This document shows, in pieces, positions 12,676 to 45,261 of a DNA stretch of 64,000 nucleotides (the first letter of the stretch is position 1; the number at the start of each line of letters is the position of its first letter). The position numbers and the translations under genes were made by a program. The notes beneath the pieces are model-generated. The model saw only the letters and a program-made list of their open reading frames with translations, had not been told where the DNA came from and did not search any database. The stretch is from Mobula hypostoma (Eukaryota): positions 96,412,001 to 96,476,000 of the forward strand of contig NC_086107.1 in the NCBI RefSeq assembly GCF_963921235.1. Reading direction: 5' to 3'.

Positions 12676-13703
12676 TATAATGGTTTATCACCTTTCATTT
12701 TTGCATTGGCTAAGTGTTAAACATGCTGTACTTCTGTGTCTTCCAATAGGCCCTCCCTTATCTCAAGAACTTGCCTCACCTTGGTATAATACAGTAAATC
12801 CCCGGGTTAAGAATATCCAACTTACAGACAACTCGTACTTACGGACTGCCATAAAGCCTATTATATTAAAAATTTGAGTTACATACAATGGTTCGTAACA
12901 ATGAACGCACGCACTACTTTGTGACGCTCATGAAAACATTGCGCGGCTTCAGCGGTTTGTCTGCTCGCGGAAGGAGAACGCTGTCTGCCATTTTAAATTG
13001 GATCACGTTGCTGTTAACAATGTTGAGTGTGTAATTTTGTATTTGGCATAAATTTTTCTCTTATTTACCCTCGTAACCATGCCTTCAAAACATAAATCCG
13101 ATGCAAGTGCTGGTGATGCATCAAAGAAAAGGAAAACGATCACGATTGAAAATAAAGTGGAAATAATAAAGCGATCAGAAAGAGGTGGAACGCCATCGGT
13201 CATTGGAAAAGCATTAAGCTACAGTCGGAACAATTTTAAAGGCCATGCCCCGATGAAAGCTACAATTATTACTAAGCAACGCAGTGGTTTAATTATTGAA
13301 ATGGAAAGGCTATTGATAATTTGGTTAGATGATCAAAATCAGCGTAATATGCTTATTTAGCCTTACTTTAGTGCAAGAAAAGGATCAAAGCCTTTTCAAT
13401 GATTTAAAAGCTGCACGTGCAGCAAGTGAAGATGATTGTGATGAAGAATTTGTTGCTAGTAGGGGTTGGTTCAATCGTTTCAAAGTGAGGGCAAATTCAC
13501 ATAATATTAAAGTGCAAGGTGAAGCAGCGAGTGCTCATGTAAGTGCTGCGAGTGATTTTCCTGAAATGTTTCAAATAAATTATTAAGGGGGGAGGTGATT
13601 TGCCAGACCAAATATTTAATTTTCACGAGACTGGCTTATTTTGGAAAAAAATGCCTGAAAGGTCCTATAATTTGAAAGAGGAAAAAGGTGCACGAGGGCA
13701 TAA

Positions 13704-14199
13704 CATCTGTCAGACAATGCTGAGGATGTTCTACAAGTCTGTGGTGGCCAGTGCGATCATGTTTGCTGTTGTGTGCTGGGACAGCAGGCTGAGGGTAGCA
13801 GACACCAACAGAATCAACAAACTCATTCGTAAGGCCAGTGATGTTGTGGGGATGGAACTGGACTCTCTGACGGCGCTGTCTGAAAAGAGGATGCTGTCCA
13901 AGTCGCATGCCATCTTGGACAATGTCTCCCATCCACTACATAATGGACTGGTTGGGCACAGGAGTACATTCAGCCAGAGACTCATTCCACCGAGATGCAA
14001 CACTGAGCGTCATAGGAAGTCTTTCTGCTTCTGGCCATCAAACTTTACAACTCCTCCCTTGGAGAGTCAGACACCCTGAGCCAATAGGCTGGTCCTGGAC
14101 TTAGTTCCTGGCGTAATTTACATATTACTATTTAATTATTTATGGTGCAACTGTAACAAAAACCAACTTCCCTCGGGATCAATAAAGTATGACTATGAC
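13704..14199 (+). mobile_element. Rex1/Babar LINE 3' fragment inserted in Tigger
   Basis: NICQTMLRMFYKSVVASAIMFAVVCW...RINKLIRKASDVVG with tail AATAAAGTATGACTATGAC; CATAA is duplicated at the junctions. Confidence 0.8.
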
Positions 14200-14328
14200 C
14201 ATAAGGCATCAAAGGATAGGCTAACGTTATTGCTTGGGGGTAACTCATCTGGGGATTTCAAGCTCAAGCCTTTGCTTGAGAATCGCTCCCTAAATCTGAG
14301 GGCACTTTGCCGTATCATTAAGGCATCA

Positions 14329-14707
14329 GCAGCGAGCACTTTTGTGCAGACAGGACAGCGTGACCAGCCTCCCACGACCAGGAGAGCAGTGCAAGTTGAG
14401 CCAGCCTCTGAGACCGACCTGGGAGCCGGCAGCCTTGACGGAGGCAGTGTGCCAGTGACGTAGGCGCCCATAAGTACGGCCCAACTCCCAGATGATTGGT
14501 GGATCACTAGCAGCTTTACATAGCCTCTGACAAGTTGCACACATGACGGACCAGGTAGGCAACAGCTGTCCAGCACACCCACCCATCCCAGACAACCTAG
14601 GGGAGAGCTGCCAGCGGGCCAGGGCAGCAAGGTCTTTGCCAGGCCTCCTGCTTCAATCTAAACACCAGAGGCTAGGCAGGATGTAGCCGACTCAAGCGTA
14701 TGCCTGC
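14329..14707 (+). mobile_element. Probable 5' UTR and ORF1 start of a Tx1-group element (possibly the head of the third Tx1 copy)
   Basis: Not Tigger sequence. CTTCAATCTAAACACC...AGGATG (14651-14683) resembles CTCCAATCTAACACC...AAGATG, which precedes ORF1 in Tx1 copies 1 and 2. Confidence 0.4.
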
Positions 14708-14759
14708 ATCGCTTCTCGGCCTTTTGGCTAAGATCAAGTGTAGTATCTGTTCTTATCAG
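14708..14759 (+). ncRNA. RNU2: U2 snRNA 5' fragment (nt 1-52), orphan and truncated
   Basis: ATCGCTTCTCGGCCTTTTGGCTAAGATCAAGTGTAGTATCTGTTCTTATCAG matches the conserved vertebrate U2 5' end and includes the branch-point recognition GTAGTA (14740-14745). No U2 3' part was seen in the window. Confidence 0.96.
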
Positions 14760-14864
14760 ACCAGAAGGCGGAGGTGAAGAGTTTGCGCTGACGCAGGGGT
14801 GGATCCTAATGCTGATTGGCCTCCAATCTAACACCCCATACCAGCGACGACAGCAGTGAGGAAG

Positions 14865-16286
14865 ATGGCAGCAGCGAGCAGTGCTCGAGGCCAAGGTATC
14901 AAGAACACTGTCAGGCTGACAGTGCGAGACCGGAACGGGGGCACCGGCTTCACCCGAGAGACCTTCATCCAGAAGGTGTTGATGGAATGCTGCGGATTTA
15001 CGCCTGACGACATCTACTGCGTCCAGGACTTCGCAGATTTTTTCGACGTGACTTTCCGGCAGGCTGCAGGGTGGCAGAAGCTGTACCAGCAGCTTCAGCT
15101 GAAGGGGACAGAGGCGCCGCTGTCGCTGTTGAAAGCACAGGCCCTCTTTGCCACGGCTACCCAGCAGGAACGGACAATCACGGTGCACATGTTCAACCCG
15201 CACGTGCCAGTGGTAGATGTCCTTACATTCCTCGCTCGGTATGTGGAGAGCGTAGGAACGCCAGCAGACGTGAAGGACGGACTGGGAATCTGGACCAGCA
15301 AACGGCAGGTCAAGGTGAAGCTGAGGTTGGACTCCAACGGCGGCGTCATCCACCCCCCCTCCGTCTTCGCCATCGGAGGGAACCGAGGGTACACGGTGTA
15401 CGCGGGGCAACCCAGGGTGTGCCGAAACTGCGGCAAGGCAGGGCACATCGCAGCCCAGTGCAGGGTGGTGATGTGCAAGAACTGCAAAACTGAAGGCCAC
15501 CTGACCAAAGACTGCACGCAGGCCAAGTCCTGCAACCTTTGTGGACAAGACGGCCACCTGTACAGAGCCTGCCCGAGGCGTGGGGGCACCTACGCACAGG
15601 CAACCAGGGGAGGTGCTGGTCCTGAAAGGGCCCAGGCAGTTTCGGACGCCCCTGCCAGCACTGCCGAAGAGGCACCCGACAGGGCGGACGATGAGACCAG
15701 GGAGGAAGGGGCAAGCACCCCGAGACCTGCCACCCCACTGCAGACCCTCCAGGACCAAGCAAACGACGAGCAGGAGTCCATGGAGGAGGGGACAGCTGAG
15801 GTGGAAACGGAATGGAAGGTCGTGAAACGGAAAAAGACCCAAAAGGCGGCGGCCAAGCGACAGAAGGCGGAGCAACGCAAGAAAAGGGCAGGGAACCACA
15901 CAGCCTCTGGTACCCTGTCCTCTTCAGAGGAGGAAGGAGTTGGGGGAGGCCAGCAGCCCCAGCGGAAGAAGCGGCTGGCAGAACAGGTGGAGAGGAGGAG
16001 AGAGGAGGGGGAAAGTCTGCTGGCCACCCCCCAAGTACAGGAGGCGGAGAGCAGCAGACACACCGAGCTCCGGGAATCCGGGAGCAGAGCCACGGTTGGC
16101 ACCCAGCAGCCGGAAGCGGAAGCAGCCCAGGAAGCCAACAACCCCCCGGGCCCAGAACCAGAACGGCCACACACGGAGGAGTACTACCAGCAGTACCTGA
16201 GCCCACAGGAGGTGGAAAACTTCACAAAGGCGGTGGGAATGAAGGCTCAGGATGGCAAGGATGAGGACGGAGTGCAGCCAAAATAA
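14865..16286 (+). CDS. Tx1 ORF1p, gag-like nucleic-acid-binding protein with three CCHC zinc knuckles (intact frame)
   Basis: CRNCGKAGHIAAQC, CKNCKTEGHLTKDC and CNLCGQDGHLYRAC; basic WKVVKRKK stretch; low-complexity C-terminus. Confidence 0.9.
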   Translation: MAAASSARGQGIKNTVRLTVRDRNGGTGFTRETFIQKVLMECCGFTPDDIYCVQDFADFFDVTFRQAAGWQKLYQQLQLKGTEAPLSLLKAQALFATATQQERTITVHMFNPHVPVVDVLTFLARYVESVGTPADVKDGLGIWTSKRQVKVKLRLDSNGGVIHPPSVFAIGGNRGYTVYAGQPRVCRNCGKAGHIAAQCRVVMCKNCKTEGHLTKDCTQAKSCNLCGQDGHLYRACPRRGGTYAQATRGGAGPERAQAVSDAPASTAEEAPDRADDETREEGASTPRPATPLQTLQDQANDEQESMEEGTAEVETEWKVVKRKKTQKAAAKRQKAEQRKKRAGNHTASGTLSSSEEEGVGGGQQPQRKKRLAEQVERRREEGESLLATPQVQEAESSRHTELRESGSRATVGTQQPEAEAAQEANNPPGPEPERPHTEEYYQQYLSPQEVENFTKAVGMKAQDGKDEDGVQPK

Positions 16287-16296
16287 AAGACCTACA

Positions 16297-19200
16297 ATGA
16301 TGGCAGACCTTAAATTGGCGTGCTTGAATGTGCGAAGTTTGAAGAGTACTGGGCGATGCGTCAGCACGCTCCAGTACCTGGACACTGTAAAGACCGACGT
16401 GACCTTCCTCCAGGAGTGCGGACTACCACATCTCCGTAACTACCGGAGATGGTCACGGTGGTGGAAAAAAGGTTTGTCTGTGTGGTCGGGGGGCAACGAT
16501 TGTTGCGCTTCCGGCCTGGGGATTCTGCTACGGGGAGGTAACTTCTCAATCACCCAAGTTAAAGAGGTGGTTGCGGGGCGCCTCCTGGTAGCAGACGTCA
16601 AATACCGGGGCACTCCGCTCCGGCTGATCAACGTGTACGCCTCCCCGGTTCGGAGCGAGCGGCTGGCCGTCTTCGAGCAGCTCCCACAGCTGCTGGTGAC
16701 GTCCCAGCCGGTCGTTCTGGCCGGAGACTTCAACTGCACCATTGATGCGGCTGGAGGACCCGGCAGCGCCGACGGCAGGCTGGACAGTACCTCCAGACTC
16801 CTGAGGGAAATAGTAAAGACGGCCAAGCTGCGCGACGCCTTTGGCACCCCCACAGGTGGAGCACGGCCGCAAGCCACCTGGACACGATCGGACGGCTCAG
16901 CCCGCTCCCGGATCGACTTCCTCTTCCTGTCAGAGCCCCTCACGGTCAGGTCCACCGACGTCACGCCGGTGTTCTTCTCTGACCACTGCCTTCTGAGAGC
17001 CACCTGTCTTTTACGGGAGGACCAGAAGGCAGGCAGGGGGACGTGGAAGCTGAATGTTCAGCTGCTGACCCCAGAGAACATCGAGGAACTAGAGAGGGAG
17101 TACACAGGTTGGAGAACCTTGAAAGCCTTCTTTGATTCCCCGGTTCACTGGTGGGAAGCCACCAAAGAGAACATTAAGAGGTTCTTCATCCGCAAGGGTA
17201 TCCAGAAGGCAAGGCAGGAGCAGAGGGAACTGCGTAAACTCCAGACAGAGTTGCAGCAACTTCTCCTTCTGCAGTCGAAGGGGGTGGATGTCAGGGAGGA
17301 ATTGCGAGAGGTGAAGGGCCGGCAAGCCCATAACCTCGCCGCCGAATCCTCCAAGATCATCTTCCGATCAAGGGTCCAAACCGTGGAGCAGGACGAGACG
17401 TGCTCACGCTTCTTCTTCCAAAAGGTGCACAGGGGGAGCTCTGTGATCCACAACCTTAAGGAAGAGGACGGCTCAGTCGCGTCCTCGCAGACCGACATAC
17501 TGAGGATCTGCAAGTCCTTCTATGCCGGTCTGTACGACGAAAAGGCCACAGAATCCACAGCCTCCCGCAACTTCCTGTCGTCTATCACGCAGGTCTTAGA
17601 CGGCGGCAAGCGGGAGAGTCTGGATCAGCCACTGACCCTGGACGAGCTGACAGGCTCCATCCGTTCCTTTGGGTCGGGTAAGACTCCCGGAAGCGACGGC
17701 TTACCGGCTGAGTTGTACTCGGCTCTGTGGAACTGGATAGGCCCAGACCTGCTGGAAGTGTACAATGCTATGCTTCTGGCCGGCAGTATGTCTGAGTCCA
17801 TGAGGAAGGGCATCATCACCCTCATCTACAAGCAGAAGGGGGAAAGAGAGGACATTAGAAATTGGAGACCCATCTCTCTCCTGAATGTGGACTACAAGAT
17901 CCTGTCCAAGGCTATCGCCAACAGGGTCAAGTCTGCTCTGGGACAGGTGATCCACCCAGACCAAACCTGTGCTGTACCAGGCAGGAAGATCTCAGACAGC
18001 CTCGCGCTGCTGAGGGACACCATCGCCTACGTGCAGGACAGGAGGGTGGACGCCTGCCTGGTCAGCTTGGACCAGGAGAAAGCCTTCGACAGGATATCGC
18101 ACACGTACATGGCGGACGTGCTCTCCAAAATGGGATTTGGGGAGGGAATCCGGAATTGGATCAGACTGCTCTACACAGACATCCGTAGTGCAGTCCAGGT
18201 CAACGGGTGGGAAACAGACAGCTTCCCCATCAGGTCTGGAGTCAGGCAGGGCTGTCCCCTCTCCCGTCTTGTTTGTCTGCTGCATAGAACCCTTTGCGGA
18301 AGCCATTAGGAGGGATGAGGGCATAAGAGGGGTGACGCTGCCAGGCAGTGGAGGGACCCAAGTGAAAACCTCCCTGTGCATGGACGACGTCACCGTCTTC
18401 TGCTCTGATCCGAGGTCAGTTCGCAGGTTGATTGGCACCTGCGAACAGTTCGAGCTAGCGTCGGGGGCCAGGGTCAACCGCACGAAGAGCGAAGCCATGC
18501 TCTTCGGCAACTGGCCCGACCGATCCAGCGTCCCCTTCAACATCAGGTCTGACCACGTGAAGGTGTTGGGGATATGGTTCGGAGGGACGGAGGCGTGCAA
18601 CAAGAACTGGCAGGAGCGGACTGCCAAGGTGAAACAGAAACTGGGACTGTGGGGAGGGCGCTCCCTGTCGATAACGGGCAAGAACCTGGTCATCAGGTGT
18701 GAGGTGCTCTCAGGGCTGCTGTACTTGGCGCAGGTCTGGCCCGTCCCCCGCTCCTACAGCTCGGAAATCACCCGGGCTGTCTTCAGATTCGTCTGGGGAT
18801 CCAAGATGGAGCGGGTGGGACGGACCGCCATGCACAAGTCCCTGGACAACGGGGGCAAGAACGTCCCCAATGTCGCCCTCACCCTGATGGCCAGTTTCGT
18901 ATGTGGCTGCATCAGGTTGTGTGTAGAGCCCAGGTATGTGGGCACCAAGTACCGCTACGTGCCCAGGTTCTACTTGTCGCCCTGGCTACGAAGGATGGGT
19001 CTGGCCCCACTCCCGCGCAACACCCCAGTCAGCTGGTCGCTGCCGGCATACCTGTCCTACGTAGCAAAGTTCTTCCAGGAGAACGCCTTTGACCACAGGG
19101 CCATCAGGCAGTGGTCGGCACGTAGTGTCCTGCAGGCACTGCACGAGAAGGACGTGATGGACACAGTGGGGTGGTTCCCTGAGCAGACTGTCCAGTTCAT

Positions 19201-19708
19201 CTGGCAAAATGCCTCATCGCCAGATCTAACCAACAGGCACCAAGACCTCGCCTGGCTGGCGGTGAGAGGGGCCCTCCCAGTCAGAGCCCTCCTGTACGCC
19301 CGGAACGTCGTCTCCGCACCCCACTGCCCACGGGAGGACTGCAGTGAGGAGGAGTCTGTGACCCACCTCTATGCACACTGCCAGTTCGCAAAGAGGGTGT
19401 GGAGGAGGATGGACGGGCTAGTGTCACGGTTTATCCCCAGCAGCTGCGTAACAGAGGACTCTCTGATCTACGGGCTGTTCCCGGGGACACACACGGTTAC
19501 CAACGTCCGGTGCTGCTGGCAGATCATCAACTCGGTGAAAGATTCTATTTGGTCGGCCCGAAACTTGATGATCTACCAGCACATGGAGATGTCCGTGGGA
19601 GAATGCTGCCGACTGGCACATTCTCGACTGCAGGAGTACGTGCTGAGGGACGCACTGAAACTCGGTGCAGCCACCGCAAGGGCCCGGTGGGGAAGGACCA
19701 CAGTATAG
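16297..19708 (+). pseudogene. Tx1 ORF2 (APE endonuclease, RT, C-terminal Cys/His domain) with one 2-bp frameshift at ~18265 and YMDD changed to CMDD
   Basis: ORFs 16252-18309 and 18137-19708: LNVRSL, FLQEC, LAGDFN, SRIDF, FSDH, LDQEKAFDR, GVRQGCPLS, CMDD, CPREDC..EESVTHLYAHC. Confidence 0.92.
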
Positions 19709-19944
19709 GTTTCTCCACCCGTGGGAGTGGGAGGGGTCGGAGGGCGGGGAGTATACCCCTCAACAATGAAATGATATGGTAAGCTGAACTACTGGAGTGC
19801 CACGTGGGTGGCTATAAATACGGATATGTACTGTGTATAATGCAAACGTATGTAAAGGATGAAAAGTTATTGAATGGTTTATTGTATATATTTATTTTTG
19901 AATAAAGTATATTTTGAAATTAAAAAAAAATCTGTTCTTATCAG

Positions 19945-22900
19945 ACCAGAAGGCGGAGGTGAAGAGTTCGCGCTGACGCAGGGGTGGATCCTAATGCTCA
20001 TTGGCCTCCAATCTAACACCCCATACCAGCGACGACAGCAGTGAGGAAGATGGCAGCAGCAAGCAGTGCATCGGCTCGAGGCCAGGGTATCAAGAACACT
20101 GTCAGGCTGACAGTGCGAGACCGGAACGGGGGCACCGGCTTCAACCGAGAGACCTTCATCCAGAAGGTCATGATGGAACGCTGCGGATTTACGCCCGACG
20201 ATATCTACTGCGTCCAGGACTTCGCAGGTTTCTTCGATGTCACTTTCCGGCAGGCTGCAGGGTGGCAGAAGCTGTACCAGCAGCTTCAGCTGAAGGGGAC
20301 AGATGCGCCGCTGTCACTGCTGAAAGCACAGGTCCTCTTTGCAACGGCTACCCAGCAGGAACGGACAATCACGGTGCACATGTTCAACCCGCACGTGCCA
20401 GTGGTAGATGTCCTTACATTCCTCGCTCGGTATGTGGAGAGCGTAGGAACACCAGCAGACGTGAAGGACGGACTGGGAATCTGGACCAGCAAACGGCAGG
20501 TCAAGGTGAAGCTGAGGTTGGACTCCAACGGCGGTGTCATCCACCCCCCCTCCGTCTTCGCCATCGGAGGGAACCGAGGGTACACGGTGTACGCGGGGCA
20601 ACCCAGGGTGTGCCGAAACTGCGGCAAGGCAGGGCACATCGCAGCCCAGTGCAGGGTGGTGATGTGCAAGAACTGCAAAACCTAAGGCCACCCAACCAAA
20701 GACTGCACGCAGGCCAAGTCCTGCAACCTTTGTGGACAAGCCGGCCACCTGTACAGAGCCTGCCCGAGGCGTGGGGGCACCTACGCACAGGCAACCAGGG
20801 GAGGTGCTGGCCCTGAAAGGGCCCAGGCAGTTTCGGACGCCCCTGCCAGCACTGCAGAAGAGGCACCCGACAGGGCGGACGATGAGACCAGGGAGGAAGG
20901 GGCAAGCACCCCGAGACCTGCCACCCCACTGCAGACCCTCCAGGACCAAGCAAACGACGAGCAGGAGTCCATGGAGGAGGGGACAGCTGAGGTGGAAACG
21001 GAATGGAAGGTCATGAAACGGAAAAAGACCCAAAAGGCGGCGGCCAAGCGACAGAAGGCGGAGCAACGCAAGAAAAGGGCAGGGAACCACACAGCCTCTG
21101 GTACCCTGTCCTCTTCAGAGGAGGAAGGAGTTGGGGGAGGCCAGCAGCCCCAGCGGAAGAAGCGGCTGGCAGAACAGGTGGAGAGGAGGAGAGAGGAGGG
21201 GGAAAGTCTGCTGGCCACCCCCCAAGTACAGGAGGCGGAGAGCAGCAGACACACCGAGCTCCGGGAATCCGGGAGCAGAGCCACGGTTGGCACCCAGCAG
21301 CCGGAAGGGGAAGCAGCCCAGGAAGCCAACAACCACCCCGGGCCCAGAACCAGAACGGCCACACACGGAGGAGTACTACCAGCAGTACCTGAGCCCACAG
21401 GAGGTGGAAAACTTCATGAAGGCTCAGGATGGCAAGGATGAGGACGGAGAGCAGCCAAAATAAAAGACCTACAATGATGGCAGACCTTAAATTGGCATGC
21501 TTGAATGTGCGAAGTTTGAAGAGTACTGGGCGATGCGTCAGCACGCTCCAGTACCTGGACACTGTAAAGACCGACGTGACCTTCCTCCAGGAGTGCGGAC
21601 TACCACACCTCCGTAACTACCGGAGGTGGTCACGGTGGTGGAAAAAAGGTTTGTCTGTGTGGTCGGGGGGCAACGATTGTCGCGCTTCCGGCCTGGGGAT
21701 TCTGCTACGGGGAGGTAACTTCTCAATCACCCAAGTTAAAGAGGTGGTTGCGGGGCGCCTCCTGGTAGCAGACGTCAACCGAAGTTAAAGAGGTGGTTGC
21801 GGGGCCCCTCCTGGTAGCAGACGTCAAATACCGGGGCACTGCGCTCCGGCTGATCAACGTGTACGCCTCCCCCGTTCGGAGCGAGCGGCTGGCCGTCTTC
21901 GAGCAGCTCCCATAGCTGCTGGTGACATCCCAGCCGGTCGTTCTGGCCGGAGACTTCAACTGCACCATTGATGCGGCTGGAAGACCCGGCAGCACCGACG
22001 GCAGGCTGGACAGTACCTCCAGACTCCTGAGGGAAATAGTAAAGACGGCCAAGCTGCGCGACGCCTTTGGCACCCCCACAGGTGGAGCACAGCCGCAAGC
22101 CACCTGGACACGATCGGACGGCTCAGCCCGCTCCTGATCGACTTCCTCTTCCTGTCGGAGTCCCTCACGGTCAGGTCCACCGACGTCACGCCAGTGTTCT
22201 TCTCTGACCACTGCCTTCTGAGAGCCACCTGTCGTTTACGGGAGGACCAGAAGGCAGGCAGGGGGACGTGGAAGCTGAATGTTAAGCTGCTGACCCCAGA
22301 GAACAGCGAGGAACTAGAGAGGGAGTACACAGGTTGGAGAACCTTGAAAGCCTTCTTCGATTCCCCGGTTCACTGGTGGGAAGCCACCAAGGAGAACATT
22401 AATAGGTTCTTCATCCGCAAGGGTATCCAGAAGGCAAGGCAGGAGCAGAGGGAACTGCGTAAACTCCAGACAGAGTTGCAGCAATTTCTCCTTCTGCAGT
22501 CGAAGGGGGTGGATGTCAGGGAGGAATTGCGAGAGGTGAAGGGCCGGCAAGCCCATAACCTCGCCGCCAAATCCTCCAAGATCATCTTCCGATCAAGGGT
22601 CCAAACCGTGGAGCAGGACGAGACGTGCTCACGCTTCTTCTTCCAAAAGGTGCACAGGGGGAGTTCTGTGATCCACAACCTTAAGGAAGCGGACGGCTCA
22701 GTCGCGTCCTCGCAGACCGATATACTGAGGATCTGCAAGTCCTTCTATGCCGGTCTGTACGACGAAAAGGCCACAGAATCCACAGCCTCCCGCAACTTCC
22801 TGTCGTCTATCACGCAGGTCTTAGACGACGGCAGGCGGGAGAGTCTGGATCAGCCACTGACCCTGGACGAGCTGACAGGCTCCATCCGTTCCTTTGGGTC

Positions 22901-25160
22901 GGGTAAGACTCCCGGAAGCGACGGCTTACCGGCTGAGTTGTACGCGGCTCTGGGGAACTGGATGGGCCCAGACCTGCTGGAAGTGTACAACGCTATGCTT
23001 CTGGCCAGCAGTATGTCTGAGTCAATGAGGAAGGGCATCATCACCCTCATCTACAAGCAGAAGGGGGAAAGGGAGGACATTAGAAATTGGAGACCCATCT
23101 CTCTCCTGAATGTGGACTACAGGAGCCTGTCCAAGGCTATCGCCAACAGGGGCAAGTCTGCTCTGGGACAGGTGATCCACCCAGACCAAACCTGTGCTGT
23201 ACCAGGCAGGAAGATCTCAGACAGCCTCGCGCTGCTGAGGGACACCATCACCTACGTGCAGGACAGGAGGGTGGACGCCTGCCTGGTCAATTTGGACCAG
23301 GAGAAAGCCTTCGACAGGATATCGCACACGTACATGGCGGACGTGCTCTCCAAAATGGGATTTGGGGAGGGAATCCGGAATTGGATCAGACTGCTCTACA
23401 CAGACATCCGTAGTGCAGTCCAGGTTAACAGGTGGGAAACAGACAGCTTCCCCATCAGGTCTGGAGTCAGGCAGGGCTGTCCCCTCTCCCCTGTCTTGTT
23501 TGTCTGCTGCATAGAACCCTTTGCAGAAGCCATTAGGAGGGATGAGGGCATAAGAGGGGTGACGCTGCCAGGCAGCGGAGGGACCCAAGTGAAAACCTCC
23601 CTGTACATGGACGACGTCACCGTCTTCTGCTCTGATCCGAGGTCAGTTCGCAGGTTGATTGGCACCTGCGAACAGGTCGAGCTAGCGTTGGGGGCCAGGG
23701 TCAACCACACGAAGAGCGAAGCCATGCTCTTCGGCAACTGGCCCGACCGATCCAGCGTCCCCTTCACCATCAGGTCTGACCACGTGAAGGTGTTGGGGAT
23801 CTGGTTCGGAGGGGCGGAGGCGTGCAACAAGAACTGGCAGGAGCGGACTGCCAAGGTGAAACAGAAACTGGGACTGTGGGGAGGGCGCTCCCTGTCGATA
23901 ACGGGCAAGAACCTGGTCATCAGGTGTGAGGTGCTCTCAGGGCTGCTGTACTTGGCGCAGGTCTGGCCCGTCCCCCGCTCCTACAGCTCGGAAATCACCC
24001 GGGCTGTCTTCAGATTCTTCTGGGGATCCAAGATGGAGCGGGTGGGACGGACCGCCATGCACAAGTCCCTGGACAACGGGGGCAAGAACGTCCCCAATGT
24101 CGCCCTCACCCTGATGGCCAGCTTTGTATGTGGCTGCATCAGGTTGTGTGTAGAGCCCAGGTATGTGGGCACCAAGTACCACTATGTGCCCAGGTTCTAC
24201 TTGTCGCCCTGGCTACGAAGGATGGGTCTGGCCCCACTCCCGCACAACGCCCCAGTCAGCTGGTCGTTGCCGGCATACCTGTCCTACGTAGCAAAGTTCT
24301 TCCAGGAGAACGCCTTTGACCACAGGGCCATCAGGCAGTGGTCGGCACGTAGTGTCCTGCAGGCACTGCAGGAGAAGGACGTGATGGACACAGTGGGGTG
24401 ATTCCCTGAGCAGACTGTCCAGTCCATCTGGCAAAATGCCTCATCGCCAGATCTAACCAACAGGCACCAAGACCTCGCCTGGCTGGCGGTGAGAGGGGCC
24501 CTCCCAGTCAGAGCCCTCCTGTGCGCCCGGAACGTCGTCTCCGCACCCCACTGCCCACGGGAGGACTGCAGTGAGGAGGAGTCTGTGACCCACCTCTTTG
24601 CACACTGCCAGTTCGCAAAGAGGGTGTGGAGGAGGATGGACGGGCTAGTGTCACCGTTTATCCCCAGCAGCTGCCTAACAGAGGACTCTCTGATCTACGG
24701 GCGGTTCCCGGGGACACACATGGGGACCAACGTCCGGTGCTGCTGGCAGATCATCAACTCGGTGAAAGACGCTCTTTGGTCGGCCCGAAACTTGATGATC
24801 TACCAGCACATGGAGATGTCCGTGGGAGAATGCAGCCGACTGCCACATTCTCGGCTGCAGGAGTACGTGCTGAGGGACGTACTGAAACTCGGTGCAGCCA
24901 CCGCAAGGGCCCGGTGGGGAAGGACCACAGTATAGGTTTCTCCACCCGTGCGATTGGGAGGGGTCGGAGGGAGGGGAGTATACCCCTCAACAATGAAATG
25001 ATATGGTAAGCTGAACTACTGGAGTGCCACGTGGGTGGCTATAAATACGGATATGTACCGAGTATAATGGAAACGTATGTAAAGGATGAAAAGTTCTTGA
25101 ATGGTTTATTGTATATATTTATTTTTGAATAAAGTATATTTTGAAATTAAATAAAAAAAA
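19945..25160 (+). mobile_element. Keno-like Tx1 retrotransposon, copy 2 (full length, several stops and frameshifts)
   Basis: Nearly identical to copy 1 from ACCAGAAGGCGG to the poly(A). Stops at 20683 and 24399, a ~46-bp tandem duplication at 21733-21827, YMDD intact. Confidence 0.93.
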
Positions 25161-28100
25161 TCTCTTCCCATTAGGGGTCGCAGGAGAGAACAGTTACGGT
25201 ACACATGCTTAATCCCTATGTACCGGTCGTCGACGTTCTCACTTTTCTAGCACGTTATGTGGAGAGAGTGTGGAGGTGTGAGGACGTTGACGAAATTCTG
25301 GAGGTTTGGACATCTAATCGGCTGGTCAGGGTTAAGTTAAGGACGGACACCAATGGCTGTGTCATCCACCCACCCTCCGTCTTTGCGATAGGAGGGAACC
25401 GGGGCTACCTGGTTTACGCCGGACAACCGAAACTGCGCCGAAACTGCGGCAAGGCAGGGCACATCACGGCCCAGTGTAAGGCTGTGGTGTGCAGAAATTG
25501 CAAGGTGGAGGGACACCTTACCAAAGACTGCATGGAGGCCAAATCCTGCAACCTCTATGGGCAGGCGGGCCACCTTTATAGGACCTGTCCGAAACGGGTG
25601 GGCTCCTATGCACAGGTGGCCAGGGGTAGTGATGACATCGGGATAGCCCCAGCTGGAGTGGAGGTGCCCGCCGTCTCTGTAGAGGAGATGTAGGTTGCGA
25701 TGGAGGGACAAGAGCCCAGCCTGGGCTCCCCCTCCACCTTGCAGGACACCCAATACCCCCCGCTTGATGAGGGTTCAATGGAAGAGGGGAGGGCCGAGGG
25801 GGAAGAGGAAAAGTGGAGGGTGGTCACAAAACGAAAAAAGACCCTAAAGATGCCGCCAAAAAGACAAAGGGCGGAGAAATTGGAGAGCTCTAAAAAGAGA
25901 GAGGTTGAGCATCACTCGTCCTCTGAGCACCTGTCTTCCTCGGAGGAGGGCGGTGGGGGTGGCCAGAAACCCCGACAGAGGAAGAGGCGGGTTAATCGGG
26001 CAGAGGAGAGTCAGGGGAAGAGTGAAGGTCTGCTAGCCACCCCCCAGTCGCAGGATGGGGGGATCAGCAGAGTCTCTCAGCTCCGGGAATCCGGGAGCAG
26101 TCATACTTCTGGTGGTCTGCAGCCAGATGGAGGGGCGCCCCTGGAGGTTCCATTTGGTGCCGAACCAGTGGCGCCCCTCCCTGGCAGGGAGTACCAGCAG
26201 TACCTGAACCCTCAGCAGGTGGAAGACTTCACCAGGACTGTGGGGATGAGGCCTCCAGACGGGAAAGAAGAGAACGAGGATTTATAAAAGGTGATGGACC
26301 TTAAACTGGCATCTTTAAACCTTCGCAGTGTGAAGAGTACTGGGCGTTGCGTCAGCACGCTTCGGTACTTGAACACTGTGAACGCCAACGTGACCTTCCT
26401 GCAGGAGTGCGGTCTGCCGCACCTCAGGAGTTATCGACGGTGGTGGTCCCAGGGTTTGTCGGTGTGGTCGGGGGGCAACGATGGTCACGCTTCCGGCCTG
26501 GGGATTCTGCTGCGGGGAGGCAACTTCTCAATCACCCAAGTTAAAGAGGTGGTTGCGGGGCGCCTCCTGGTAGCAGACGTCAAATACCGGGACACACCAC
26601 TCCGGCTGATCAACGTGTACGCCTCCCCCGTTCGGAGCGAGCGGCTGGCCATCTTCGAGCAGCTCCCAAAGCTGCTGGTGACGTCCCAGCCGGTCATTCT
26701 GGCCGGAGACTTCAACTGCACCATTGATGCGGCTGGACGACCCAGCAGCACCGACGGCAGGCTGGACAGTACCTACAGACTCCTGATGGAAACTGTAAAG
26801 GCAGCCAAGCTGCGCAACGCCTGTGGCACCCCCACAGGAGGAGCACAGCCGCAAGCCACCTGGACACGATCGGACGGCTCAGCCCGCTCCTGGATCGACT
26901 TCCTCTTCCTGTCAGAGTCCCTCACGGTCAGGTCCACCGACATCACGCCGGTGTTCTTCTCTGACCACTGCCTTCTGAGAGCCACCTGTCGTTTACGGGA
27001 GGACCAGCAGGCAGGCAGGGGGACGTGGAAGCTGAATGTTAAGTTGCTGACCCCAGAGAACATCGAGGAACTAGAGAAGGAGTACACAGGTTGGAGAACC
27101 TTGAAAACCTTCTTTGATTCCCCGGTTCACTGGTGGGAAGCTACCAAGGAGAACATTAGGAGGTTCTTCATTCGCAAAGGTATCCAGAAAGCAAGGCAGG
27201 AGCAGAGGGAACTGCGTAAACTCCAGACAGAGTTGCAGCAACTTCTCCTACTGCAGTCGAAGGGGGTGGATGTCAGGGAGGAACTGCGAGAGGTGAAGGG
27301 CCGGCAAGCCCAGCACCTCGCCGCCGAATCCTCCAAGATCATCTTCCGATCAAGGGTCCAAACCGTGGAGCAGGACGAGACGTGCTCACGCTTCTTCTTC
27401 CAAAAGGTGCACAGGGGGAGCTCTGTGATCCACAACCTTCAGGAAGAGGACGGCTCAGTCGCATCCTCGCAGACCGACATACTGCGGATCTGCAAGTCCT
27501 TCTATGCCGGTCTGTACGACGAAAAGGCTACAGAATCCACAGCCTCCCGCAACTTCCTGTCGTCTATCACGCAGGTCTTAGACGACAGCAAGCGGGAGAG
27601 TCTGGATCAGCCACTGACCCTGGACGAGCTGACAGGCTCCATCCGTTCCTTTGGGTCGAGTAAGACTCCCAGAAGCGATGGCTTACCGGCTGAGTTGTAA
27701 TCGGCTCTGTGGAACTGGATGGGCCCAGACCTGCTGGAAGTGTACAACGCTATGCTTCTGGCGGGTAGCATGTCTGAGTCCATGAGCAAGGGCATCATCA
27801 CCCTCACCTACAAGCAGAAGGGGGAAAGGGAGGACATTAGGAATTGGAGACCCATCTCTCTCCTGAATGCGGATTACAAGATCCTGTCCAAGGCTATCGC
27901 CAACAGGGTCAGGTCAGCTCTGGGACAGGTGATTCATCCAGACCAAACCTGTGCTGTACTGGGCAGGAAAATCTCAGACAACCTCACGCTGCTGAGGGAC
28001 ACCATTGCCTACGTGCAGGACAGGAGGGTGGACGCCTGCCTGGTCAGCTTGGACCAGGAGAAAGCCTTCGACAGGATATCGCACACGTACATGGCGGACG

Positions 28101-29962
28101 TGCTCTCCAAAATGGGATTTGGGGAGGGAATCCGGAATTGGATCAGACTGCTCTACACAGACATCCGTAGTGCAGTGCAGGTCAACGGGTGGGAAACCGA
28201 CTGCTTCCCCATCAGGTCTGGAGTCAGGCAGGGCTGTCCTCTCTCCCGTCTTGTTTGTGTGCTGCATAGAACCCTTTGCGGAAGCCATCAGGAGGGATGG
28301 GGGCATAAGAGGGGTGACGCTGCCAGGCAGTGGAGGGACCCAAGTGAAAACCTCCCTGTACATGGACGACGTCACCGTCTTCTGCTCTGATCCGCGGTCA
28401 GTTCACAGGTTGATTGGCACCTGCGAACAGTTCGAGCTTGCGTCGGGGGCCAGTCTCAACCGCACGATGAGCGAAGCCATGCTCTTCGGCAACTGGCCAG
28501 ACCGATCCAGCGTCCCCTTCACCATCAGGTCTGACCACACGAAGGTGTTGGGGATCTGGTTCGGAGGGGCTGAGGCGTGCAACAAGAACTGGCAGGAGCG
28601 GACTGCCAAGGTGAAACAGAAACTGGGACTGTGGGGAGGGCGCTCCCTGTCGATAACAGGCAAGAACCTGGTCATCAGGTGTGAGATGCTCTCAGAGCTG
28701 CTGTACTTGGCGCAGGTCTGGCCCGTCCCCCGCTCCTACAGCTCGGAAATCACCCGGGCTGTCTTCAGATTCGTCTGGGGATCCAAGATGGAGCGGGTGA
28801 GACGGACCGCCATGCACAAGTCCCTGGACAATGGGGGCAAGAACGTCCCCAATGTCGCCCTCACCCTGATGGCCAGCTTCGTGTGTGGCTGCATCAGGTT
28901 GTGCATGGATCCCAGATACGTGGGCACAAAGTACTACTATGTGCCTAGGTTTTACCTGTCGCCCTGGCTACGAAGGATGGGTCTGGCTTCTTTCCCGCGC
29001 AACACCCCTGTCAGCTGGTCGTTGCCCCCTTACCTGTCCTTCGTAGAAAAATTCTTCAAGACCAACACATTTGACCACAGGGCCATTAGACAGTGGTCGG
29101 CACGTAACGTCCTGCAGGCACTGCAGGAGAAGGACGTGATGGACACAGTGGGGTGGTTCCCTGAGCAGACTGTCCAGTTCATCTGGCAAAATGCCTCATC
29201 GCCAGATCTCAGCAACAGGCACAAAGACCTAGCCTGGCTGGCGGTGAGAGGGGCCCTCCCAGTCAGATCCCTCCTGTACGCCCGGAACAGTTCCTCCACA
29301 CCCCGTTGCCCACGGAAGGACTGTAATGGGGTGGACTCGGTGGCTCACCTCTTTGCACACTGTGGGTTCGCAAAGAAGGTGTGGAAGGCACAGTACTAAG
29401 ATTCATGCCCAGCAGCTGCGTAACAGAGGACTCTCTGATCTATGGGCTGTTCCCGGGGACGCACACGGAGACAAACATCCGGTCCTGCTGCCAGATCATC
29501 AATTCGGTGAAAGACGCTCTTTGGTCAGCCCGAAACTTGATGGTCTGCCAGCAGATGGAGATGTCCGTGATTCAATGCTGCAGACTGGCTCACTCTCGTC
29601 TGCAGGAGTCCGTGCTGAGGGATGCACTCAAACTTGGTGCGGCCACCACGAAGGCCCAGTGGGGAAGGACCACAGTTTAACGTTCATCACCCGTAGGAGG
29701 GGGAGAGGTTGGGTGGGGAGGAGACCTACCCTCATCAGCGGTGTGGACAGATAATCAACATGGTGCCCAAGGAGTGGGTGGAATTGTTAATTTGGGAAAG
29801 TATTAGAGCCATTGCCTGCCTTTATTGTTGATAATTTGATTGTTAATAAGTTTTAACTCTTGACCAAGGGTTGAGAGTAAACGCATGATTTATTGTAAAC
29901 ATCTTTCATTTGTAAATGAACAGAGTCAACGCAAAATTTTTATTGTTAATAACTGTATTGAA

Positions 29963-30809
29963 ACCTCCGGTTAAACCGAAAGCTACGGATTTCCCCCCGA
30001 CTGAATCACCGGTGACTTTGAAAGCGATATCGGAGTTAATTCAGAGGGAAATTTCAACCTCTGTTAGGGAGATGATTCGTACGGAAATTGCAGGCTCTGT
30101 TAAAGACCTGATTCATACGGAAATCTCAACTAATTTCCAGAAAATTGCCGATTCAATGGATAAGATGCAAACATTTATTGCGGAACATCAGTCGGCTATA
30201 TCTGATCTTCAAAAATTCGTGCAACAAAGTGAGCTTAAGATGGGGAAAATCGAAGAAACAATTAATGTAATGAAGAAGAAACTTGACTTTTTGACTTTTA
30301 AAAACTCTGACTTGGAATCTAGAATGCGACGGCAGAATTTACGAATGATCGGGGCGAGGGAAGCTGTTGAATCCAACAACCCCATGAAATATTTTTCTCA
30401 ACTTTTAAAAGATGCATTCCCTACTGTATTTCCTGACCAACCACCGCTTCTGGATCGTGTTCACAGAATCCCATCATACTCGTCTAGGTCAGATAGACCT
30501 AGGCATGTTATTTTACGTTTTCATTATTTTCAAGACAAGGAGAGACTGTTTCGATTCGCTCGATCTAAAGGTTTCATTGATTTTTCGGATCTTAAGTTCC
30601 GATTCGTGGAAGATTTCAGTAAACCAATCTGGGACCAACAGGTTCGTTACAGATCCGTGATGTCGGAATTCTATAAGATGGATTTAAGACCAGCGCTGCT
30701 GTACCCTGCACGTCTAAGGATTCGCATGTCAGATGGAGCCCTTCGTTTTTTTGATTCTCCATCGGATGCCCAGAGTTATATGGATCAACTTTCATCTTCA
30801 ACATCTTAA
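29963..30809 (+). CDS. L1 ORF1p (coiled coil, RRM, CTD), N-terminus truncated at the insertion point
   Basis: DLESRMRRQNLRMIG, LDRVHRI, PRHVILRF, RFVEDFS and LLYPARLRI are typical L1 ORF1p motifs. Confidence 0.85.
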
Positions 30810-31527
30810 TTGCCTTTTTTTAATTATCTCCGTTGGATCGGAGGCTGTGAATTGGTTGGTTTTAACTTTTTCGTGCCCTATCTGGGCAGAAAAGTTTATT
30901 TTTGATTTCTTAATATGGTTGCTAAACTTTCTTTTTAACTGCGTCATTTCTTTCTTTTCCCAGGGGATTCTGGGTGGTTACTTCCCTTTTGTCATCTTAC
31001 GTATTTCCTGTGTGGCCTTAAATTTTGTAGTTTTTTTTAAATTTTATTCTGTTTTGCTTTTTATAACCACTTTATGTCCATAATCCTATTTTTTCTTGTT
31101 GCTGTGTCTATTCATGGGTTTGAGGTTTATTGTGGTTTTTTTTAATATATATTTTCCGGCTTTTGTTCTGTTCTGTGTGTATTTTAATTGAGCTAACTTT
31201 TTTTTTTACTTACTTTTTTACTGTTTTACAATTAGCTGATCCTTTTCATATTTATACCTTTTTTTTTTAGGGAGCGTATACCGGAAGTCATGGGGGTAGT
31301 TTTAGCGCTTGCTTCTCTCTGGCGGGTCTGCTTTAGATTTTGCCTTGGGGTCTTGGGGCGGTGGGAGGGGCTTCACGTTTTAGTTTGTTTCTCTTTGGGC
31401 TATATACATTATTGAAGTACTGGTTGCGTCCTTTTTCCCGGTATCTTTTGTATGTTCTGTTTCCTCTCCGGGTTTGTGGGTCGCGCCTATCGTCAATCCT
31501 CCTTGTTGTGGGTTGACTTTAGGATTT

Positions 31528-44795: not shown

Positions 44796-45261
44796 GTATT
44801 CAGCCTTCAGCTGGAGAAGCAGGCAAACACACCCATTGCTACTTTTTACCAATATGGAGACTGGGAAAGTCTTTCCTCTTTCCCAAGGCTTCACCTATCC
44901 AATATTGAGAATTTAGTAATTTCCTGCCTTCATGTTAAATACAAGCTAAAGAGATACCAGCTCTGCAGGACACAAAAACTGCAAACAAGACCACGCAATT
45001 CTTGCCCTCCTCCTTTCCTATGATGAACTCTCTGGACTAAAGTCAGTGTCTGAAAGAATCTTTGCAAAGGTGTGACCCTCCAACAAGGCAAGGGAGACCT
45101 TAGAGGACCTAAACACACTGTCCAGAGAAAATCATCACAATCCCATGCAGATGTAATCTCAATACAGAACAACAGAATCTATACCTCTGGTCCTTACCCT
45201 TGGGTAAGAGTTTTAGTTTTGATGGGGACAGGAAGGTAGGGAGTGCGTTCAGATTGACAAA

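Follow-up and report, generated by a model that had tools for sequence, protein, structure and literature searches.

A 21-kb stack of Keno-type LINEs with an internal U2 snRNA head inside a dead Tigger element of Mobula hypostoma

Results

Within the window, i.e. the whole 64-kb stretch of Mobula hypostoma DNA analysed here, a dead Tigger element is interrupted at 14329|35740 by an insert of 21,410 bp. Read 5' to 3', the insert comprises a 378-bp segment (X), a U2 snRNA head, a first Keno-type LINE (Keno-1), a duplication of U2 nt 39-52, Keno-2, a 13-bp Tigger target-site duplication (TSD), and Keno-3, which has an L1 inside it. Four LINEs are stacked, a tandem of three Keno copies and one L1, and the U2 head is internal to the stack. 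The features are as follows.

13040..13699 (start approximate), + strand: Tigger left arm part 1, DNA-binding region (weak Pfam CENP-B_N, HTH_Tnp_Tc5)
14196..14329, + strand: Tigger left arm part 2, ending ...AAGGCATCAG at 14329 (weak Pfam DDE_1)
14330..14707, + strand: X, 378 bp between the Tigger break and U2 +1
14708..14759, + strand: U2 snRNA nt 1-52, the head (Rfam RF00004; same letters as U2 in contig L006)
14760..19930, + strand: Keno-1, full length (Pfam, ORFs, alignment)
19931..19944, + strand: U2 nt 39-52, target-site duplication of Keno-1 (exact repeat of 14746-14759)
19945..25160, + strand: Keno-2, full length (alignment to Keno-1; Pfam)
25161..25173, + strand: TSD-L TCTCTTCCCATTA, left half of the 13-bp Tigger duplication made by Keno-3 (12/13 against 35740-35752)
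25174..29962, + strand: Keno-3 body, 5'-truncated (BLAST, Pfam, alignment)
29963..35639, + strand: unrelated L1-type LINE within the Keno-3 3' UTR (Pfam; own 11-bp TSD)
35640..35739, + strand: remaining Keno-3 3' UTR, its first 11 bp being the L1 TSD copy (aligns to the Keno-1 tail)
35740..36205, + strand: Tigger right arm, its first 13 bp being TSD-R TCTCTTCCCGTTA; Tigger extends past 36205 (frame, Pfam DDE_1)

The preliminary description placed the block inside a dead Tigger, and DDE_1 pieces do lie on either side of 14329|35740. Left-arm matches are weak, with CENP-B_N (E 0.0066) and HTH_Tnp_Tc5 (E 0.00054) found by Pfam in ORFs 13052-13357 and 13329-13583, and the translation KDRLTLLLGGNSSGDFKLKPLL... 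resembling DDE_1 profile positions 1-31 at an E of 0.01, below the cut-off. The right arm begins SLPVIWK at 35740, its frame (SLPVIWKVNAKA...) carries on from the left arm, and DDE_1 is matched from 35779 over positions 53-145 (E 5.2e-12) and 145-177. With positions 1-31 on the left, 53-177 on the right and SLPVIWK in between, Tigger is continuous across the insert, and the boundary of Tigger with the insert falls at 14329|14330.

Rfam reports one U2 match in the 64 kb (14708-14839, 66.8 bits, E 5.6e-11), of which only 14708-14759 is genuine U2, the remainder being a forced global alignment. By eye, these letters agree throughout with nt 1-52 of the intact U2 gene in the fetched contig L006. 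As had been described, U2 starts exactly at +1 (preceded by a C) and stops at nt 52, the LINE starting at 14760, and Rfam finds no further U2 piece in the window, the 3' half included, besides the head and the 39-52 repeat. Copies of the 39-52 14-mer in the window number exactly two, one on each side of Keno-1 (14746 and 19931). The second is the sole U2 sequence ahead of Keno-2, and it corresponds to the start of the Keno 3' target TCTGTTCTTATCAGTTTAAT as printed in the cited section of PMC6136364.

Keno-1 starts with ACCAGAAGG... at 14760, and Keno-2 has the identical start at 19945. In Keno-1 the 5' UTR runs to 14864, ORF1 (14865-16286) is open for 473 aa, and ORF2, disrupted by a 2-bp deletion near 18265, is divided between two frames (16243-18306 and 18014-19708). 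Pfam finds RBD_ZCCHC3_1st/2nd and zf-CCHC in ORF1 and Exo_endo_phos, RVT_1 and zf-RVT in ORF2. The element ends with AATAAA at 19901 and poly(A) at 19922-19930, then TCTGTTCTTATCAG (U2 nt 39-52). Keno-2 shares 97.7% identity with Keno-1 at aligned bases (5037/5154), with 7 indels, or 96.3% by BLAST with gaps. It is the more decayed of the two, with 1-bp and 49-bp insertions and 15-bp and 1-bp deletions relative to Keno-1, more frame-breaking indels and, with Keno-3 as outgroup, a modest excess of private changes (53 vs 37), of which 13/53 vs 3/37 are CpG-type. Its RT frame is unbroken over the CPLSP motif, with RVT_1 and zf-RVT detected. Keno-3, the most broken of the three, starts at about position 410 of Keno-1, has about 85% identity to the other two copies and carries several stops and frameshifts. 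Its tail is Keno-type, aligning to that of Keno-1 including TGAATAAAGTAT, with poly(A) at 35731-35739. The 2-bp RT-motif deletion is common to Keno-1 and Keno-3, whereas the frame of Keno-2 is intact; gene conversion, recurrent slippage or assembly error could account for this pattern, which lies outside all steps of the model favoured below. The L1 has an ORF2 open for 1306 aa (Transposase_22, Exo_endo_phos, RVT_1 and zf-RVT by Pfam), 28% identity to Keno ORF2, and an 11-bp TSD, ACTGTATTGAA, at 29952-29962 and 35640-35650.

Copies at U2 can be found among related loci. U2 pieces are present in 7 of the 80 fetched relatives (L003, L006, L009, L011, L019, L029 and L033), and L006 has an intact U2 gene upstream of the element. 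Heads are about 50, 41 and 37 nt long in L019, L009 and L033. The fish element L003 reads U2(1-26)-element-A(n)|TCTGTTCTTATCAGTTTAAT, with U2 on both sides, and a 99-bp overlap at 100% links its end to the start of L001, so that two U2(1-26)-Keno units follow one another. In the RT tree the three window copies fall in a 12-tip clade (SH-like support 0.993) together with L003, Takifugu BAD04856 and Danio proteins, one of them named 'transposon TX1' by NCBI. The nearest named protein to the window Keno is from a ray, with 94% identity to Mobula hypostoma. The poly(A)|U2 39-52 junction, the domains and the RT clade bear out the earlier assignment to a Keno-type, U2-site-specific element of the Tx1 clade; the family is specific for the bond before U2 nt 39.

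TSD-L (25161-25173) and TSD-R (35740-35752) are alike at 12 of 13 bases, and each directly follows a Keno poly(A), that of Keno-2 abutting TSD-L. Two Keno poly(A) tails meet one Tigger bond (A|TCTCTTCCC), and the site was therefore hit twice. Neither this double hit nor the tandem structure is mentioned in the preliminary description. Apart from the double hit, there is no strong indication that the site was chosen. The Tigger site matches the printed 20-base Keno target at 11/20 bases, a likeness equalled or bettered at 885 of 127,962 window positions, so a 'U2-like' Tigger site is not established.

X is not Tigger sequence. It has a GC content of 59% and a CpG o/e of 0.39, and begins with CAG directly after a Tigger CAG, a 3-nt microhomology at the very bond where the Keno poly(A) tails join on the other side. 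It was earlier labelled TE-like, a label that none of the tests backs: X has no match elsewhere in the window, whichever the strand, no protein homologue was found for its 108-aa antisense ORF, and Rfam gives no match with E below 0.49. Nor does it resemble the 80 fetched loci or genuine U2 flanks, and neither a poly(A) nor a poly(T) occurs in it. X contains none of the consensus PSE, SPH and octamer motifs, but neither does a genuine U2 flank occupied by Keno that served as positive control, so the comparison has no discriminating power.

Discussion

Keno elements are Tx1-clade LINEs specific for U2 snRNA genes (Kojima and Fujiwara 2004, as cited in PMC4494074, PMC4640811 and PMC6136364), and the cited sections of these three papers record them from frogs, fish, lancelet and hydra. 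The literature search returned no paper on Keno in cartilaginous fishes. The window elements agree with Keno as described there in ORF1 with CCHC knuckles, in ORF2 with APE, RT and zf-RVT, in the poly(A)|TCTGTTCTTATCAG junction and in the 5' part of U2 ahead of the element, and their RT groups with the fish element flanked by U2 on both sides. Unlike those elements, no window copy sits in a U2 gene: the sole 'U2 target' is the 52-nt head borne by another copy, and two further copies were primed at a non-U2 Tigger site.

Within the cited sections, a close parallel is crocodilian Tx1-Mar, in which Tx1-11_Crp has a U2 head and Tx1-2_Crp, Tx1-2B_Crp and Tx1-4_AMi bear U1 heads, along with SINEU (Kojima 2015, PMC4494074). 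These Keno relatives also carry the U2-derived head outside U2 genes, prefer fixed places in a Tc1/mariner-type DNA transposon, and include copies whose '5' extensions' are put down to template jump or 5' transduction (PMC4494074). In contrast, the window head ends at its own family's U2 junction (nt 52) and is still used as a target, and the Tigger preference here is one site hit twice, not a survey. Utopia, a group of U2-specific LINEs with a restriction-like endonuclease, shares the U2 3' junction of Keno; Utopia-1_NVit is occasionally tandem in U2 genes, and crocodilian copies lie outside U2 genes at short U2-like strings, e.g. TCTGTTCTT (PMC4640811). It differs from Keno in endonuclease and clade, and its off-target junctions are described as rarely having duplications (PMC4640811), whereas Keno-3 has a clean one of 13 bp. 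U2-headed Tx1 elements, a tandem U2-targeting LINE (Utopia) and off-target insertions at U2-like sites are thus already published. R2 and R1 likewise have no known promoter of their own and are co-transcribed with the upstream rRNA target, and target sequence carried along can aid precise 5' joining (PMC4494074). Keno differs from R2/R1 in that Rfam, at E up to 1, places no self-cleaving ribozyme family at its 5' end, and in that its copies keep the leader derived from the target.

In template-switch chimeras of the U6/L1 type the snRNA 3' end is kept and the LINE is 5'-truncated. In the window, by contrast, U2 breaks off at nt 52, at the junction that the element itself makes on insertion, and the LINE has its full length. 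What is shared is an snRNA fused 5' of a LINE in one insertion (PMC4494074).

On balance, the stack is likely to reflect repeated retrotransposition by one Keno-type family of the Tx1 clade, with an APE endonuclease, its insertions accumulating at two nicks set by sequence. Probably first, a 5'-truncated Keno-3 would have been primed at the bond G|TCTCTTCCC in the dead Tigger, making a 13-bp duplication whose geometry is that of the 14-bp one which the family leaves in U2. The regenerated Tigger site would have been nicked again at the same bond and a second cDNA primed, on a putative template RNA consisting of at least 378 nt of donor upstream sequence, U2 nt 1-52, Keno and poly(A). The 5' end of this cDNA may have joined Tigger at the CAG microhomology without duplication, which would make X a 5' transduction and the U2 head internal to the cDNA. 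Keno-1 would have entered the U2 head at the canonical position, whether at this locus or beforehand in the donor, by a nick at 38/39 and duplication of nt 39-52, to give the tandem U2(1-52)-Keno-1-A(n)-U2(39-52)-Keno-2. The unrelated L1 would have inserted later, into the Keno-3 3' UTR. The decay of the copies, as a guide to relative age, speaks for this account: Keno-3 is the most broken and most divergent, Keno-2 has modestly more private changes than Keno-1, and the L1 still has an open ORF2. This probable order is drawn from one locus, and either order of Keno-3 and the X-to-Keno-2 block yields the same map.

The preliminary description had proposed off-target integration of a chimeric U2-Keno RNA that the U2 promoter had driven and that was reverse-transcribed all the way to its 5' end. 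A U2(1-52)-Keno nucleic acid did enter Tigger; an RNA start at U2 +1 and copying to the very 5' end are not shown, as 378 bp of non-Tigger sequence lie upstream. To keep a capped U2(1-52)-Keno RNA from the U2 promoter, X would have to be added by a template switch to another RNA or as repair filler. U2 being exact from +1 to the family's own 5' junction suits this account, as does the absence of consensus snRNA promoter motifs from X, although the genuine U2 flank lacks them too, and 5' additions by template jump are discussed for the related Tx1-Mar/SINEU in the cited section of PMC4494074. It is nevertheless unlikely: 378 bp is long for filler, X belongs to no Rfam family and lacks the 3' poly(A) expected of an mRNA acceptor, and the exact +1 start becomes trivial if X is native U2 flank. 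Full-length L1 inserts, moreover, often have an extra G at the 5' junction from cap copying, and here the base before U2 +1 is C.

Origin at the DNA level is still less probable, and would have X-U2(1-52)-Keno-1-U2(39-52)-Keno-2 copied from a Keno-occupied U2 locus, with Keno-3 as the seed, through repair synthesis, gene conversion or ectopic recombination and not through reverse transcription. A homologous Keno-3 does adjoin the block, the 2-bp deletion in Keno-1 and Keno-3 but not Keno-2 hints at sequence exchange, and genuine U2 arrays are known in which consecutive units carry Keno (L003/L001). Yet the block has no U2 3' half or downstream U2-locus DNA, and Keno-2 and Keno-3 do not meet in a homologous crossover: between the complete poly(A) of the one and the truncated start of the other lies the 13-bp Tigger duplication, intact, which is the signature of target-primed reverse transcription. 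That the tandem and the head-flank junctions are mis-joined reads of a repeated family merits the least credence. The stacked repeats are 85-98% identical, and the 2-bp difference that two copies share falls within a C/T-rich stretch prone to long-read error; the junctions, however, are all mechanistically clean, with three TSD pairs of plausible length (14, 13 and 11 bp) and the Tigger frame restored across the insert, and a chance mis-join would not yield them.

Under repeated retrotransposition, the simplest reading of X and the U2 head is as one cDNA running past U2 +1. The argument is one of parsimony, as X has no tail and fits exactly between the nick and U2 +1. The template RNA would then have begun at least 378 nt upstream of U2 +1, and this copy therefore gives no evidence of a transcript that begins at U2 +1. 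As to its nature, X may derive from read-through transcription of the native flank 5' of a U2 gene occupied by Keno, which is the leading candidate at under even chances; almost as plausibly, it may be the flank of an earlier off-target U2-headed copy acting as a secondary master, and the remaining probability goes to something else. Among these options, it is the secondary-master flank alone that would imply a past transcript with its start precisely at U2 +1.

Organisation of the insert

At this locus a Keno-type family of the ray is cleanly shown to have acted both at its canonical U2 bond, within a 52-nt head, and at a single bond of a Tigger transposon, which it used twice. The dead Tigger is continuous across 14329|35740, so that 14330-35739 (21,410 bp) is all insert. 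Its arms run on in the DDE_1 profile across the whole of this stretch, in agreement with the preliminary description, which had placed the block inside a Tigger; the frames of the two arms differ by one base, which leaves the original Tigger sequence uncertain by up to a codon. Self-comparison of the window gave three LINE copies in tandem (copies 1, 2 and 3, or Keno-1 to Keno-3).

Features of the insert and of the flanking Tigger (strand given where assigned)
ending at 14329: Tigger left arm, last residues ...IIKAS; DDE_1 profile positions 1-31, weak match, E 0.01
14330-14707: X, non-Tigger sequence of 378 bp without poly(A) or poly(T)
14708-14759, plus: head, U2 nt 1-52
14760-19930: copy 1, full length
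14865-16286, plus: copy 1 ORF1, from ATG at 14865, open for 473 aa; RBD_ZCCHC3_1st/2nd, zf-CCHC and zf-CCHC_2 (Pfam)
within copy 1, plus: ORF2 with APE-type Exo_endo_phos, RVT_1 and zf-RVT (Pfam)
19901 and 19922-19930, plus: AATAAA and poly(A) of the copy 1 3' end
19931-19944, plus: TCTGTTCTTATCAG, U2 nt 39-52, immediately after the copy 1 poly(A)
19945-25160: copy 2, 97.7% identical to copy 1 at aligned bases (5037/5154), 7 indels
from 25174: copy 3, 5'-truncated, about 85% identical to copies 1 and 2
18250-18270, 23478-23495 and near 28230: region of the GCPLSP deletion in copy 1, copy 2 (intact) and copy 3, respectively
29963-35639: unrelated L1 with ORF2 open for 1306 aa (28% identity to Keno ORF2), a Transposase_22 ORF1 region and poly(A)
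35651-35739: Keno-type tail of copy 3 with poly(A), 89 bases, after the L1 duplication
from 35740: Tigger right arm, beginning SLPVIWKVNAKA; DDE_1 positions 53-177 from 35779

Copies 1 and 2 start with identical bases, and ahead of copy 2 there is only the repeat of U2 nt 39-52. The copy 2 poly(A) is followed by TCTCTTCCCATTA (25161-25173) and then by copy 3. The same 13 bases, with one CpG-type difference, recur as TCTCTTCCCGTTA at 35740-35752, where they are preceded by poly(A) and Tigger resumes. With its 13-bp duplication, 5' truncation and poly(A) abutting the right-hand duplicate, copy 3 is a textbook target-primed structure. Copies 2 and 3 abut the Tigger site, and no copy in the window has U2 on both sides in a U2 gene.

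The L1 has an 11-bp duplication of its own, ACTGTATTGAA, at 29952-29962 and 35640-35650. The possibility that it shares the Keno tail, with poly(A) on Tigger, was rejected: the tail is that of Keno-3, and the L1 duplication lies inside the Keno-3 3' UTR. The L1 looks young, and a 70%-identical relative is present at 103-3321. A fragment of about 500 bp at 13700-14195, interrupting the Tigger left arm (open frame 13579-14076, 166 aa, no Pfam match), is another, older insertion, and ORFs at 45113-46469 with Pfam matches to ALKBH8_N (E 1.3e-12) and RVT_1 are probably another LINE fragment and not a cellular gene.

U2 head and target site of copy 1

A single U2 match was returned by Rfam for the 64-kb window (14708-14839, plus strand, 66.8 bits, E 5.6e-11). 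Real U2 sequence is limited to its first 52 bases, which are the same as the start of the intact U2 gene in L006, one of the fetched contigs encoding ORF2 relatives; the remainder of the match is a forced end-to-end alignment. The LINE begins at 14760, directly after the head. A functional U2 snRNA gene has a full length of about 188 nt and a 3' box. The U2 content of the window falls short of a full-length gene, consisting of nt 1-52 and a second copy of nt 39-52, and the U2 3' half is absent from the 64 kb by Rfam.

The second copy of nt 39-52 places copy 1 at the canonical site of the family. In the 64 kb the 14-mer has exactly two occurrences, starting at 14746 and 19931, and the 3' target of Keno as printed in PMC6136364 starts with it. 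Copy 1 has the Keno 3' junction, poly(A)|TCTGTTCTTATCAGTTTAAT, 37 nt into U2; just the first 14 of the 20 target bases are present because the target of copy 1 was the 52-nt head. The resulting 14-bp duplication of U2 nt 39-52 flanking copy 1 is evidence that nothing beyond U2 nt 52 is needed for the site to be cut correctly and duplicated at the correct length of 14 bp. As in snRNA-headed Tx1 elements, the snRNA-derived 5' head stands on a copy outside any snRNA gene, here in Tigger.

The preliminary description had U2 nt 1-52 fused to a Keno-like Tx1 element outside a U2 gene, without the U2 3' half, as a U2-Keno chimera integrated off-target. Its core is confirmed by the junction of head and LINE, the single Rfam match, the ORF1 and ORF2 domains together with the poly(A)|U2 39-52 junction, and the location inside the Tigger.

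Repeated use of the Tigger bond and relative ages of the copies

The copy 2 poly(A) is joined to the left-hand duplicate at the same bond as that of copy 3, A|TCTCTTCCC. Two poly(A) tails at one Tigger bond therefore require a second, independent nick there, and |TCT(C/G)TTC is common to all three nicks. Compared with the 20-base Keno target in print, the Tigger site agrees at only 11/20 bases, and 885 of 127,962 window positions match as well or better; accordingly, the site is not called U2-like on sequence. It is the double use of the bond that is the evidence for site choice, with two independent poly(A) junctions at one site of a single locus. No second copy of Tigger occurs in the 64-kb window.

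With copy 3 as outgroup, private changes number 53 in copy 2 and 37 in copy 1, those of CpG type being 13/53 versus 3/37, and frame-breaking indels number four and one, respectively. This decay suggests that copy 3 is oldest, followed by copy 2 and then copy 1, the map itself giving no order for copy 3 versus the block that ends in copy 2. The L1 looks to be the youngest insertion. Copies 1 and 3, only 85% alike, have the same 2-bp deletion in a C/T-rich run encoding the conserved RT motif GCPLSP, whereas copy 2, otherwise more decayed, has an intact frame there. Recurrent slippage, gene conversion between neighbours or long-read error could account for this pattern.

Relatives and classification

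The copy 2 ORF2 has 1340 protein relatives at E <=1e-10, including the following.

Protein relatives of copy 2 ORF2
partial protein of the ray Mobula hypostoma: 94% identity, the nearest named match
amphibian proteins: 46% identity
Danio 'transposon TX1 uncharacterized 149 kDa protein' (NCBI name): 40% identity
Takifugu BAD04856: 38% identity

The domain content is that of Keno, with an APE-type endonuclease, RT and C-terminal zinc-binding domain in addition to CCHC knuckles in ORF1. Membership of the Tx1 clade is indicated by the NCBI-named TX1 protein among the relatives, the ORF2 of the window's L1 being only 28% identical.

Eighty metagenome contigs encoding relatives were scanned with Rfam. 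Pieces of U2 were found in seven of them (L003, L006, L009, L011, L019, L029 and L033), U1 in four (L012, L015, L043 and L060) and U5 in three (L003, L005 and L031). Linkage to snRNA genes was thus seen in 13/80 relatives: seven with U2 (L003 also with U5), four with U1 and two further with U5. The full canonical arrangement, U2(1-26)-element-poly(A)|TCTGTTCTTATCAGTTTAAT..., is present in L003. U2 heads measure about 50 nt in L019, 41 nt in L009 and 37 nt in L033, and the 3' junction in L011 and L029 reads poly(A)-GTA|TCTG.... Across these contigs the position of the 3' junction is thus constant, and that of the 5' junction differs between families; the same is stated for Utopia, LINEs that are likewise U2-specific (PMC4640811).

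L003 (1-8731) ends in the same 99 bp with which L001 (1-6946) begins. Across the join, two U2 units follow one another with a U5 gene between them. In both, U2(1-26) leads into a Keno-type element, the two elements being 79% identical, and no U2 3' part comes after the second.

An RT tree was built with FastTree (LG model, 421 query-anchored columns, 85 rows) with the window's L1 as outgroup; 7 of 84 DNA rows were dropped for cover below 80% (L024, L034, L043, L049, L055, L065 and L078). In this tree the three copies from the window form a group with two amphibian proteins (support 0.982). Their sister is a fish and frog clade that includes the U2-flanked L003, Takifugu BAD04856 and Danio BAC82621, and the entire clade of 12 tips has support 0.993. 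No family label was found for BAD04856 or BAC82621 in the papers searched. Non-U2 Tx1-Mar families also co-cluster with Keno (PMC4494074, Kojima 2015). As its rows include no Repbase-labelled Keno references and Tx1-Mar co-clusters with Keno, the tree is compatible with a Keno assignment and is not proof of it; the junctions are the better argument.

Sequence upstream of the U2 start

X opens with CAG right after Tigger's own CAG and takes up precisely the interval from the Keno nick to U2 +1. Sensitive blastn and tblastx found nothing similar to X on either strand, whether in the Keno copies or elsewhere in the window, and blastn and tblastx found nothing similar in the 80 fetched loci. At E up to 1 no Rfam family was found, the lone match being a chance-level viral one (E 0.49), and a protein search with its 108-aa antisense ORF gave 74 candidates, none significant. 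In local alignments of X with three genuine U2 flanks, the observed score was reached by 16, 24 and 21 of 300 shuffles. The lack of similarity on either strand led to rejection of X both as the missing 5' part of Keno-3 and as an inverted (twin-primed) Keno piece.

U2 gene promoters have a PSE near -55 and a DSE (octamer/SPH) near -220 relative to +1. The best PSE match in X is wrong at 6 of 14 specified positions (7 at -61), and neither an SPH-like site nor an octamer with at most 1 mismatch occurs in X. The positive control was the Keno-occupied U2 flank of the second unit of L003, a contig that overlaps L001 at 100% over 99 bp; this genuine flank fails equally for the PSE and is equally negative for the other motifs, so the scan on X is without power. 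It used consensus strings for the PSE and SPH, and the octamer as printed in PMC3544641.

X, the head and copy 2 probably represent one cDNA, 5'-truncated and joined to Tigger at a microhomology; this reading is favoured because a separate insertion would have had to land by chance at exactly this place. Given a single cDNA, the start of the template RNA would lie 378 nt or more upstream of U2 +1. In that case X either belongs natively to the flank of a U2 gene occupied by Keno and was transcribed by read-through, or it flanked an earlier copy, itself off-target, that served as master; only the latter option would imply a transcript once starting at U2 +1. The preliminary description had the U2-Keno RNA copied to its 5' end. 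Off-target integration of the chimera stands, but an RNA start at U2 +1 is not shown by this copy, in which the insert continues 378 bp further upstream.

The antisense frame 14763-15923, searched against called antisense ORFs for the 5' flanks of other copies, gave no matches. The Tigger/X junction at 14322-14341 reads ...CAGCAGCGAGCA..., and the same 12 bases are found at the Keno ORF1 start at 14862-14881 (ATGGCAGCAGCGAGCAG). This likeness may be a CAG-rich chance match or a trace of 5' joining.

Comparison with other target-specific LINEs

In template-switch chimeras of the U6/L1 type, a 5'-truncated LINE is fused to an snRNA whose 3' end is retained. Here, in contrast, the U2 sequence stops at nt 52 and is followed by a full-length LINE, and the junction is identical in copies 1 and 2. 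No ribozyme family of Rfam matched the Keno 5' end.

Crocodilian Tx1-Mar families co-cluster with Keno and prefer fixed places in a Mariner transposon; some bear U1 heads and one, Tx1-11_Crp, a U2 head, such heads and '5' extensions' being attributed to template jump or 5' transduction (PMC4494074). The same source, citing R2, notes that a target-specific element needs no promoter when its target is transcribed. Keno and Utopia have an identical 3' site, Utopia-1_NVit is occasionally inserted in tandem in U2 genes, and off-target crocodilian Utopia insertions lie at short U2-like strings such as TCTGTTCTT (PMC4640811). In the literature searched, whose coverage does not extend to the 2004 description of Keno, no report was found of Keno in cartilaginous fishes or of a Keno transcript starting at U2 +1; the 2004 description may treat this subject.

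Implications

The general question is how site-specific LINEs residing in small-RNA genes are transcribed and how they change targets. With every junction resolved, the 21-kb stack is a clean example of a Keno-type family active both at the U2 bond that it canonically cuts and at another bond outside U2. Taken by itself, the locus documents well what has already been published. It does not prove that transcription of the element is driven by the U2 promoter, since the insert extends 378 bp past U2 +1.

A broader interpretation, which we regard as possible but rather doubtful, is that the U2 heads on Keno relatives outside U2 genes, like those of crocodilian Tx1-Mar/SINEU, are inherited, target-derived leaders of Keno RNAs that an snRNA-type promoter initiated at the start of U2, and not template-switch accidents, with the ray family in a transitional state. 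If so, this family would still cut the canonical U2 bond, its own head having been re-targeted, and would have a second fixed target in Tigger, |TCTCTTCCC, used twice. The locus would then capture the family in the course of changing its target from a small-RNA gene to a DNA transposon, and an snRNA promoter could drive a 5-kb polyadenylated transcript. If, genome-wide, many heads proved to begin at +1 next to unrelated DNA, and this bond to be filled in many copies of Tigger, the family would become a useful model both for target switching in Tx1 elements and for long-range transcription from an snRNA promoter.
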